The translations under genes and the position numbers were made by a program. Positions 2,324 through 3,781 of a stretch of 64,000 bases of DNA are shown here, in pieces; positions within the stretch are counted from its first letter, which is position 1, and each line of letters begins with the position of its first letter. Origin of the DNA: Escherichia coli. GTDB taxonomy: Bacteria; Pseudomonadota; Gammaproteobacteria; Enterobacterales; Enterobacteriaceae. The stretch lies in NCBI RefSeq assembly GCF_002854065.1, contig NZ_CP024147.1. One strand, given 5' to 3'. The notes under the pieces were generated by a model. The model saw only the letters and a program-made list of their open reading frames with translations, had not been told where the DNA came from and searched no databases.

Positions 2324-2653
2324 AAATACTCGTGCGGTTTAATGAAAGCAATTGGGTACGCGAGAAGAAAAACCCCATAAACCAAAATAATAAAACCTTA
2401 AATAACAACAATATGAAATTGATATCTTTAAAGTCAACTTTGTGTTTGTTATGTTTATCACAAAATCAACATTTTGTTTGTTATTGTATTTGTGATGCAT
2501 ATCTCTATTTATTTATTGAATGTTCGAAAACATACTTTTCTAATGCAATGTTTTTTCGCTATACCCCTTTATAGAATCTGAATTCTCACCTGTCGGCTGT
2601 TTTCTCCTCATCTCATGTGACATATTCCCACACTTTACTCAAGGAAGATTGTC

Positions 2654-3562
2654 ATGAAAGCACCTGTTTCATTAACCTCATTTCGCCCACAAAAATCTCT
2701 TGCTATCGCCATCGGCGTGCTTGCCGTGGTTGTGCTGCCATTTCTCTCGTATTACACCGTTAATGAAGGTGAACGCGGCATTTTGCTGCGCTACGGAAAA
2801 ATCGTAAAAGTTGCCGAGCCGGGTCTGGGTTTTAAGATCCCGTTTATGGAAAGCGTGGAGAAAATTTCCACGCGTAATCAGGCTGTGGTCTATCAGGGAT
2901 TACAGGCCTACAGCCGCGACCAGCAACCGGCACAAATGACAGTATCAGTCAGCTTCCACATTAAACCTTCAGAAGCAGGCGCGGTTTATACCACCTACAA
3001 CACCATTGAAGCATTAAAAGATCGTCTGATTGTCCGTCAGTTGCCAACTCAACTGGAGAACGTTTTCGGCCAATATACCGCCATCAGCGCTGTACAGGAT
3101 CGTACAAAACTGGTTCAGGATCTGCAAAATGCCATGCGCAAAGCCGTTGTTGGGCCAGTGGTAATTGACGGGGTCCAGATTGAAAATATTGATTTTTCTG
3201 ACGCTTATGAAAAGTCGATTGAAGACCGAATGAAAGCAGAAGTCGCCATTGCCACGCGTAAGCAAAATCTGGAAACAGAGAAAATCCAGGCGCAAATAGC
3301 GGTAACTCAGGCCCAGGCAGAAGCAGACAGTAAACTGGCGGCAGCCAAAGCAGAAGCGGAAACTATTCGCGTAAGAGGCGCGGCAGAGGCTGAAACTATT
3401 CGTTTAAAAAGTGCGGCTGAAGCAGAAGCAATCCGCCTGCGCGGTGAAGCTCTGCGGGATAATCCCGGACTTGTAGCCCTCACCACTGCCGAACGTTGGG
3501 ACGGTAAACTGCCCGATACCATGATCCCCGGCAGCACAGTTCCGTTTATCTCTACTAAGTAA
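2654..3562 (+). CDS. SPFH/band-7 (flotillin-like) membrane protein with C-terminal Ala/Glu-rich 11-aa tandem repeats
   Basis: 302-aa ORF with N-terminal hydrophobic anchor, SPFH-like core and three repeats AEAETIRVRGA/AEAETIRLKSA/AEAEAIRLRGE; AT-rich upstream region 2330-2650; no K-12 gene at this position as far as I recall. Confidence 0.7.
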   Translation: MKAPVSLTSFRPQKSLAIAIGVLAVVVLPFLSYYTVNEGERGILLRYGKIVKVAEPGLGFKIPFMESVEKISTRNQAVVYQGLQAYSRDQQPAQMTVSVSFHIKPSEAGAVYTTYNTIEALKDRLIVRQLPTQLENVFGQYTAISAVQDRTKLVQDLQNAMRKAVVGPVVIDGVQIENIDFSDAYEKSIEDRMKAEVAIATRKQNLETEKIQAQIAVTQAQAEADSKLAAAKAEAETIRVRGAAEAETIRLKSAAEAEAIRLRGEALRDNPGLVALTTAERWDGKLPDTMIPGSTVPFISTK

Positions 3563-3564
3563 AA

Positions 3565-3590
3565 AAAGGGCCGCTTTCGCGGCCCTTGAG
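3565..3590. terminator. Stem-loop terminator downstream of the SPFH gene
   Basis: GGGCCGC-TTTC-GCGGCCC perfect hairpin preceded by an A-run; the same 22-bp sequence recurs at 3741-3762. Confidence 0.6.
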
Positions 3591-3594
3591 AGTG

Positions 3595-3735
3595 ATGGCA
3601 AAAGCAAAACTGCCTGATGCGCTACGCTTATCAGGCCTACATACTTCCTGCAATATATTGAATTTGCACGATCTTGTAGGTCGGATAAGGCGTTCACGCC
3701 GCATCCGACATGAACAACGCGCACTTTACCAATAA
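3595..3735. repeat. REP/BIME palindromic elements
   Basis: Paired GCCTGATGCGCTACGCTTATCAGGCCTAC / GCCGCATCCGACA-type REP sequences. Confidence 0.7.
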
Positions 3736-3738
3736 TCT

Positions 3739-3765
3739 AAAGGGCCGCTTTCGCGGCCCTTCTCA
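3739..3765. terminator. Stem-loop terminator downstream of tktA (second copy of the 22-bp hairpin)
   Basis: Identical GGGCCGCTTTCGCGGCCC hairpin immediately 3' of the tktA stop on the minus strand. Confidence 0.6.
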
Positions 3766-3781
3766 CAAAACGTCTTACTGA

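Follow-up and report, generated by a model that had tools for sequence, protein, structure and literature searches.

Between cmtB and the transketolase gene tktA, a 64,000-nucleotide stretch of Escherichia coli DNA (NCBI RefSeq assembly GCF_002854065.1, contig NZ_CP024147.1; hereafter the window) carries a gene at 2654..3562 (+) that encodes a 302-aa protein of the SPFH/Band-7 superfamily. Taken together, the data indicate that this is probably a vertically inherited, single-gene SPFH locus of the HflC/HflK/prohibitin type, convergent with tktA, and that the two genes originally had one bidirectional terminator hairpin in common. The initial annotation of the region had recognised the open reading frame (ORF), its SPFH/Band-7 domain and the accessory character of the gene, all of which are borne out here, K-12 having only a 313-bp cmtB-tktA spacer without the gene and about 33% of complete E. 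coli genomes carrying it; it had also described the gene as flotillin-like, inserted by horizontal transfer, and bracketed by an exact 22-bp hairpin repeat at which it could be gained or lost, a description that the results given below do not uphold. The locus is an already annotated, unstudied member of a known superfamily, and current understanding is not overturned by it.

The distribution of the gene was followed in a collection of 5,426 complete E. coli genomes, among which two alleles of the cmtB-tktA interval are found, so that the gene is far from universal in the species. The SPFH gene is present in 1,816-1,833 genomes (~33%), at 90-99.9% nucleotide identity and always annotated as 'prohibitin family protein', the name given by RefSeq/PGAP to the 302-aa product, and the K-12-type spacer is present in 3,583-3,595 (~66%). 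The gene allele is carried by sequence type (ST) 95, by O18:H1, by a strain named 'B2.3' and by O145 RM9872, and the spacer allele by K-12, O157:H7 and O111 strains. For other species, one genome per species was scanned and the best 80 of 149 matches were retained; the order cmtB-SPFH-tktA-loiP is found in E. albertii, E. whittamii and Escherichia sp. MOD1-EC7003, and the order SPFH-tktA-loiP in Pseudocitrobacter vendiensis. The ratio of nonsynonymous to synonymous divergence (dN/dS) of the SPFH gene lies at 0.015-0.056 in the comparisons within Escherichia and with Pseudocitrobacter and is thus on the low level of tktA, and its synonymous divergence is close to that of tktA in E. whittamii (dS 0.29 vs 0.24) and MOD1-EC7003 (0.21 vs 0.21). 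It lies above the tktA value in E. albertii (0.71 vs 0.26) and Pseudocitrobacter (1.48 vs 0.34), presumably because of a codon-bias constraint on the highly expressed tktA. The G+C content (GC) of the gene is 49.6%, against 50.9% for the window, and no element ends or target duplications were found around it. Common synteny, tktA-like dS and normal GC therefore argue that the gene was not inserted. Judged by synteny and substitution rates, the gene at this position is older than the genus Escherichia and under strong purifying selection, and about two thirds of E. coli, K-12 included, carry a deletion allele from which the ORF has been removed.

The nature of the K-12 allele can be read from the DNA that precedes the gene. 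Positions 2333..2653 (321 bp; + strand of the SPFH gene) lie between the divergently oriented cmtB and SPFH genes and form a regulatory region which, as noticed initially, is strongly AT-rich (31% GC); the K-12 spacer has 33% GC over its 313 bp. The first 77 bp next to cmtB are common to the K-12 spacer and the window, and beyond them the K-12 spacer aligns weakly to the SPFH upstream region (local score 111 vs 76 +/- 8 for shuffled sequences), the blocks ATATTTGTGAT and TTATnTATTG..TGTnCGnAAAC being found in both. The tktA terminator of K-12, AAAAAAGGTCGCCGAAGCGACCTTTTT, differs from that of the window. On the evidence of these alignments, the K-12 spacer is a diverged remnant of the SPFH upstream region; since it is homologous to that region and as AT-rich, K-12 is taken to carry a deletion allele, and the AT-rich upstream DNA is no marker of foreign origin. 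When six Escherichia loci and K-12 were compared, the block CCTTTATAGAATCTGAATTCTCA (~2564-2586) was found to be conserved across the Escherichia loci, a single position being substituted in E. whittamii, MOD1-EC7003 and the other E. coli and more of them in E. albertii; it may possibly hold a -10 element, by its sequence. A Shine-Dalgarno motif, AAGGAAG, lies at ~2643-2649, and the cmtB promoter region overlaps the upstream region of the SPFH gene, being common to both. A permissive Rfam search over positions 1-8000 gave REP/BIME matches only (described below) and none in the AT-rich upstream region.

On its other side the SPFH gene converges on tktA (3782..5773, -; true start MSSRKEL at 5773). 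The window has two exact copies, and no more, of the hairpin sequence AAGGGCCGCTTTCGCGGCCCTT, which lie at 3566-3587 and 3740-3761, the exact repeat being 23 bp long with the preceding A, and a repetitive extragenic palindromic (REP) element lies in between; the duplication had been described correctly, with coordinates one base too far to the right. Both copies are 3' of the SPFH stop codon, and they bracket the REP element only, not the gene. They fold at about -18 to -21 kcal/mol (z -2.9 to -5.7); copy 1 is preceded by A7, and copy 2, an exact duplicate, is followed by the original tktA-side flank CTCACAAAACG. The DNA enclosed by them (3588..3739, 152 bp) contains a REP at 3611-3641, an L motif at ~3642-3674, an inverted REP at 3675-3712 and flanking motifs; Rfam ES036, which corresponds to the L-motif region, matches at 3633-3675 (-) with 53.5 bits against a gathering score of 37.6, and a naRNA4/REP match at 3679-3715 stays under its gathering score. 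Bacterial interspersed mosaic elements of class 1 (BIME-1), or RIP elements, consist of a REP pair with an L motif that binds integration host factor, and belong with the REPIN-type non-autonomous repeats. The 152-bp element resembles them in its two inverted REPs around an L motif, in its dispersed copies of ~150 bp and in its position in a 3' untranslated region (UTR) between convergent genes, and it is found elsewhere in E. coli (at least 80% query coverage) in 5,425 of the 5,426 genomes, at a median of 30 places per genome. By these sequence features it is a BIME-1/RIP-type dispersed repeat. The K-12 copy lies between entD and fepA without a flanking hairpin duplication; unlike it, the window copy is flanked by the exact 22-23-bp terminator-hairpin duplication, and its unit is tandemly amplified in some genomes. 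A 38-nt similarity to the left of the two hairpins was considered as a sign of a longer duplication and rejected, the stretch at copy 2 being dispersed BIME consensus, as comparison with the entD-fepA copy indicates.

The hairpin-plus-BIME unit is 174 bp long, and 0, 1, 2 or 3 units are found across genomes. There is none in Pseudocitrobacter, which reads TAAAAAAA-hairpin-CTCACAA, with a single hairpin in a 48-bp spacer and identical flanks, none in E. coli LD67-1 and F5656C1, which have the same structure in a 45-bp spacer, and none in ST2747, which has a shortened 36-bp version; the tktA-side flanks of the BIME-less E. coli loci are slightly different or shortened. One unit (hairpin-BIME-hairpin) is present in the window and in most loci, two in E. 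coli strain 3347558 and three in Escherichia sp. MOD1-EC7003. A ranking-spread sample of 21 SPFH-positive genomes comprised 5 with no unit, 14 with one (8 of them with a 12-bp internal deletion) and 2 with two. A site with one hairpin copy, which the initial annotation had proposed as the empty site, does exist, but it still holds the SPFH gene, and the BIME is what comes and goes; the repeat flanks the 152-bp BIME only, and the terminator hairpin of K-12 is a different one, so recombination at the repeat does not account for gain or loss of the gene. LD67-1 and F5656C1, which have no BIME, encode the same SPFH protein accession as the BIME-containing strain 100416, and in other Escherichia species the BIME is present, with a first hairpin that has diverged but is compensated; a precise secondary loss of the BIME by recombination between hairpins would be the simplest reading of these sequences. 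The number of units would shift, we infer, by unequal recombination or slippage between hairpin copies.

With respect to transcription, hairpin 1 has on the minus strand the features of a terminator (9-bp stem, 7 GC pairs, tail TTTTTACTTA, -18.9 kcal/mol), and the A7 that precedes it makes it a textbook terminator on the tktA strand. For hairpin 1 on the plus strand, and for hairpin 2 on both strands, the stem is present and the tail was not accepted by the terminator scan. The 3' UTR of tktA takes in hairpin 2, the BIME and hairpin 1; tktA transcripts would probably continue past hairpin 2 and the BIME and be terminated at hairpin 1 with its U-tract, and the SPFH transcript would depend on the same hairpin 1, with a weak tail. 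The hairpins are direct copies of a palindrome, and in the predicted fold of 3550-3784 (-) they pair with one another, closing a single long-range stem around the BIME (-99.8 kcal/mol, z -7.8).

Regarding the protein itself, Pfam Band_7 (PF01145) matches residues 35-210 with an E value of 5.6e-32 and covers model positions 2-176 of 176. The NCBIfam models HflC (TIGR01932; 60.5 bits vs a cut-off of 134.4) and HflK (TIGR01933; 37.4 bits vs 159.4) match below threshold, and FloT (NF058507) gives 17.4 bits where the cut-off is 700, its match being limited to the Ala/Glu helix. A sequence search of the PDB returned HflC (2.4e-13), HflK (9e-11), QmcA (9e-7) and prohibitin (3.6e-5), and a profile built from 42 sequences of the family returned HflC (2e-20), prohibitin (8.7e-14), HflK (1e-13) and PHB2 (2e-12); no flotillin chain was found at E <= 1e-3 in either search. 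The AlphaFold2 model (mean predicted local distance difference test score 85.5) has a membrane helix at 14-32, an alpha/beta SPFH domain at 33-181, an 87-residue helix at 183-269 and a tail of low confidence, which is the protomer architecture of the SPFH superfamily, with its N-terminal membrane anchor, SPFH domain and long C-terminal helix. Foldseek comparison of this model with the PDB placed HflC first (5.9e-17), followed by prohibitin, erlin and HflK, with flotillin from rank 32 down, and gave a probability of 1.00 to HflC, PHB, erlin, stomatin and QmcA chains. HflC outscores prohibitin in every search. By sequence and by predicted fold, the protein is HflC/HflK/prohibitin-like, and the flotillin label is not retained.

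The long helix contains the three C-terminal 11-aa Ala/Glu repeats that had been seen initially, AEAETIRVRGA, AEAETIRLKSA and AEAEAIRLRGE (aa 233-265, nt 3350..3448, +), in which Tandem Repeats Finder detects a 33-bp period with 2.4 copies at 3350-3427. The Escherichia proteins have three repeats and most aligned homologues of other genera (a Kluyvera protein was among the sequences compared) have two, a few carrying an 11-aa insertion elsewhere. In the family alignment, which takes in proteobacterial homologues at 50-60% identity, 39 columns are invariant, many of them in the C-terminal motif TAERWDGKLPxTMxPGxxxPF. Residues K2, R11 and K14 precede the membrane helix and acidic sequence follows it, a distribution of charges from which, by the positive-inside rule, an N-in/C-out topology like that of HflC is likely.

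Among known systems, the best sequence, profile and fold matches are therefore to HflC and HflK, the E. coli FtsH modulators (SPFH3 of Hinderhofer et al. 2009, PMC2636767). Like HflC, the protein begins with a short N-terminus and a single membrane helix, followed by the SPFH domain and a long helix, and its predicted orientation is N-in/C-out. It is, however, only ~24% identical to HflC in the Foldseek alignment, stays far under the NCBIfam equivalog cut-offs and has a different conserved C-terminal tail, TAERWDGKLP...PF, and it coexists with a genuine hflKC; its gene, moreover, stands alone in all loci examined, with no hflK-hflC-type pair, and the product is therefore presumably a homo-oligomer. 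The SPFH4 or 'p-prohibitin' group has been defined by an N-terminal membrane segment, the absence of a partner gene and a presumed periplasmic orientation, has no studied bacterial member and rarely occurs together with HflK/C in one genome (PMC2636767). The 302-aa protein fits this description: it has the membrane helix, no NfeD partner or conserved operon, and profile matches to prohibitin (8.7e-14) and PHB2 (2e-12), although here the gene and hflKC are found in one genome. It resembles the flotillins (YqiK, FloT/FloA) in having an SPFH domain and, in its C-terminal helix, repeats rich in Ala and Glu, but it is shorter (302 aa vs ~430-550 aa) and has cmtB and tktA as neighbours instead of an NfeD/YqiJ partner.

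A function can be proposed by analogy. Given an N-in/C-out topology, the SPFH domain and the long hendecad-repeat helix would face the periplasm, and the solved structures of relatives suggest that the protein may form homo-oligomers, in the shape of a ring or cage, at the outer face of the inner membrane. A structure of this kind could fence off a membrane patch together with client proteins, in the manner of HflK/C and the prohibitins; FtsH or another envelope machine may perhaps be such a client. A periplasm-facing homo-oligomeric SPFH cage would, on these grounds, be the most likely role. Across 80 loci of many genera, no conserved neighbour or NfeD partner was found, the only recurrent features being within-genus synteny and antisense shadow ORFs.

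Several observations weigh against the account of a vertically inherited locus lost from K-12. Identity between the K-12 spacer and the SPFH upstream region is only ~65-70%, an odd divergence for a simple within-species deletion, and the remnant is as diverged as the E. albertii upstream sequence; the deletion allele may therefore be old, even very old, or imported, as far as the alignment goes. Among the best 80 of 149 matches, loci of E. fergusonii, E. marmotae, E. ruysiae, Salmonella and Citrobacter are absent, so that the word 'ancestral' rests on a patchy sample of lineages. The duplication of the hairpin on arrival of the BIME is unexplained, the entD-fepA copy of K-12 having no such duplication, and a scan for sigma-70 consensus sequences upstream of the SPFH gene gave no promoter match on the plus strand. 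Literature searches gave nothing by RefSeq protein accessions and unrelated papers only by cmtB/tktA/SPFH, with no expression, topology, oligomer or client data for the protein or close relatives; from the outline of a P. aeruginosa SPFH survey (PMC13086221), no orthology to the 302-aa protein was established. Finally, relatives are found on plasmids and in phages, and the family as a whole is therefore mobile.

These mobile relatives are of several kinds. Homologues 72-74% identical are encoded by the Enterobacter hormaechei IncFII/IncR plasmid pMB9539_2 (locus 4905-5789) and the Kosakonia plasmid pKrDSM107547 (4923-5789), two different plasmid groups, in both of which the homologue is part of the F-type tra operon and has traB and traV on either side. 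Jumbo phages of ~355 kb (GAP32, Erwinia SNUABM phages, Serratia phage BF and Yersinia phage fHe-Yen9-04) encode a full-length homologue at 51-53% identity, represented by g012 of fHe-Yen9-04 (locus 2938-3795) and by 43 other phage records, near the genome start and among small hypothetical genes; the 302-aa protein matches PHROG 200 with an E value of 4e-63. A further homologue, found on IncP-type Pseudomonas plasmids and read in one of Pseudomonas paraeruginosa, lies ~1.4 kb from an opposite-strand sppA, which encodes an S49 signal-peptide peptidase, and is not adjacent to it (the two genes are at locus 2645-3457 and 4905-5786).

The plasmid homologues in the tra operon and the phage homologues raise the possibility that the protein serves envelope-spanning machines that mobile elements encode, and not the general quality control of membrane proteins; it could, for example, insulate or stabilise the inner membrane that surrounds a type IV secretion apparatus or pilus, or act during phage infection, and the chromosomal copy would then modulate conjugation or phage susceptibility. 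This is considered unlikely, since the chromosomal gene has type IV secretion or phage neighbours at 0 of 80 loci, the context of the Pseudomonas plasmid homologue is unrelated to transfer genes, and the PADLOC defence models gave no match and therefore no support for a known defence system. A broader proposal, to which the same low degree of belief is attached, would make of the HflC/prohibitin-like subfamily a periplasm-facing homo-oligomeric cage repeatedly recruited by mobile elements, organising or protecting the inner membrane at envelope-spanning machines; the chromosomal Escherichia copy, deleted in K-12 and in most genomes with the K-12-type allele, would determine envelope robustness, conjugation or phage interaction in a lineage-specific manner, namely in B2 (ST95-type) and the other lineages that carry the gene, and the hairpin-BIME-hairpin structure would have arisen by a BIME/REPIN insertion at the terminator hairpin that duplicated the whole palindrome.

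More doubtful still is the view taken in the initial annotation, that a horizontally acquired SPFH cassette was put into a K-12-like empty cmtB-tktA spacer, with the hairpin repeat as the site of gain and loss. It would accord with the absence of the gene from ~66% of E. coli, with the family members on conjugative plasmids and in jumbo phages and with the 31% GC of the upstream region, but the K-12 spacer is as AT-rich and homologous to that region, and the gene, normal in GC, occupies this position, in unchanged orientation, in three further Escherichia species or lineages and adjoins tktA-loiP in Pseudocitrobacter. Its dS to E. whittamii and MOD1-EC7003 tracks that of tktA, element ends and target duplications are missing around it, the hairpins are both on one side of it, and single-hairpin sites keep it. 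That the gene is a decaying relic without current function, en route to loss as in K-12, is very improbable: its loss in two thirds of the species, the recurrent IS1 insertions upstream (window; F5656C1) and some frameshifted or variant alleles in the database would suggest decay, but the dN/dS of 0.015-0.056 is as low as that of tktA, the ORF is intact in ~1,816 genomes and 39 residues are invariant in proteobacterial homologues at 50-60% identity.

As for the significance of the vertically inherited SPFH locus, work on E. coli SPFH proteins has been based on K-12 and on its four proteins HflK, HflC, QmcA and YqiK (PMC10434171). About one third of sequenced E. coli, B2 (ST95-type) extraintestinal pathogens included, carry a fifth SPFH protein that is strongly conserved and apparently unstudied. 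The gene constitutes a clean natural presence/absence polymorphism that is genetically tractable, its relatives in F-type transfer operons and jumbo phages supply concrete hypotheses, and the array of 0-3 hairpin-plus-BIME units is a tidy case of REP-type repeats remodelling 3' UTRs.

On the cmt side, cmtB (1056..1499, -), which encodes a mannitol-type IIA component of the phosphotransferase system, is present as an ORF, is annotated as cmtB in syntenic records and is the first gene of the cmtBA operon; its product is 99.3% identical in amino acids to that of K-12. Between cmtB and the SPFH gene, a 768-bp insertion sequence, IS1 (1556..2323, -), was identified from its ORFs insA (2268..1993) and insB (2074..1571), its terminal inverted repeats, its termini, which read GGTAATGACTCC... 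and ...GGCAGCATCACC, and a 9-bp target duplication, AAATACTCG, at 1547-1555 and 2324-2332. It matches annotated IS1A/IS1B copies at 99-100% identity, is inserted 56 bp upstream of the start of cmtB, is transcribed towards cmtB and splits the cmtB/SPFH regulatory region. The initial annotation, whose region starts (2324) immediately after the IS1 end (2323), made no mention of it. Sites without IS1, in E. coli strain 100416 and K-12, read ...AAAATAAAATACTCGTGCGG..., and the exact IS1 junction of the window was found in no complete E. coli genome of the collection. In this strain, IS1 is a later arrival in the cmtB-SPFH regulatory region. Independent IS1 copies are present in E. coli F5656C1 (locus ~930-1700), ~30 bp from the site in the window, in the opposite orientation and with the duplication GCAATTGGG, and inside cmtA in E. 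coli strain 3347558 (locus 1016-1713); these sites give the AT-rich cmt region the look of an IS1 hot spot.

The CmtB of the window is only 87-91% identical to the CmtB of other SPFH-positive Escherichia, one E. coli locus included, and E. coli copies of the SPFH gene can differ from one another at up to 7% of nucleotides; haplotypes of unusual divergence make up a mosaic in the cmt-SPFH region. At the C-terminus of tktA (window 3782-3796) the window reads ...AKALL against ...AKELL in K-12 (locus 2314-2330), and the divergent tract therefore takes in a few codons of tktA; E. whittamii combines K-12-type codons at the end of tktA with possession of the SPFH gene.

Two antisense ORFs of 76 and 106 aa, at 3307-3537 (-) and 3404-3724 (-), lie over the Ala/Glu-repeat region and the BIME. 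Equivalent antisense ORFs are found in 33-44 of 80 loci, which is attributed to the Ala/Glu repeat leaving the opposite frame open, and they were rejected as genes and regarded as shadow ORFs of the repeat. Elsewhere in the window, a tandem REP/BIME cluster lies downstream of loiP (6818-7098), with two copies of a 113-nt unit at 92% identity and naRNA4 matches under the gathering score, and a further REP cluster with an 87-nt tandem unit is found at 29394-29604.

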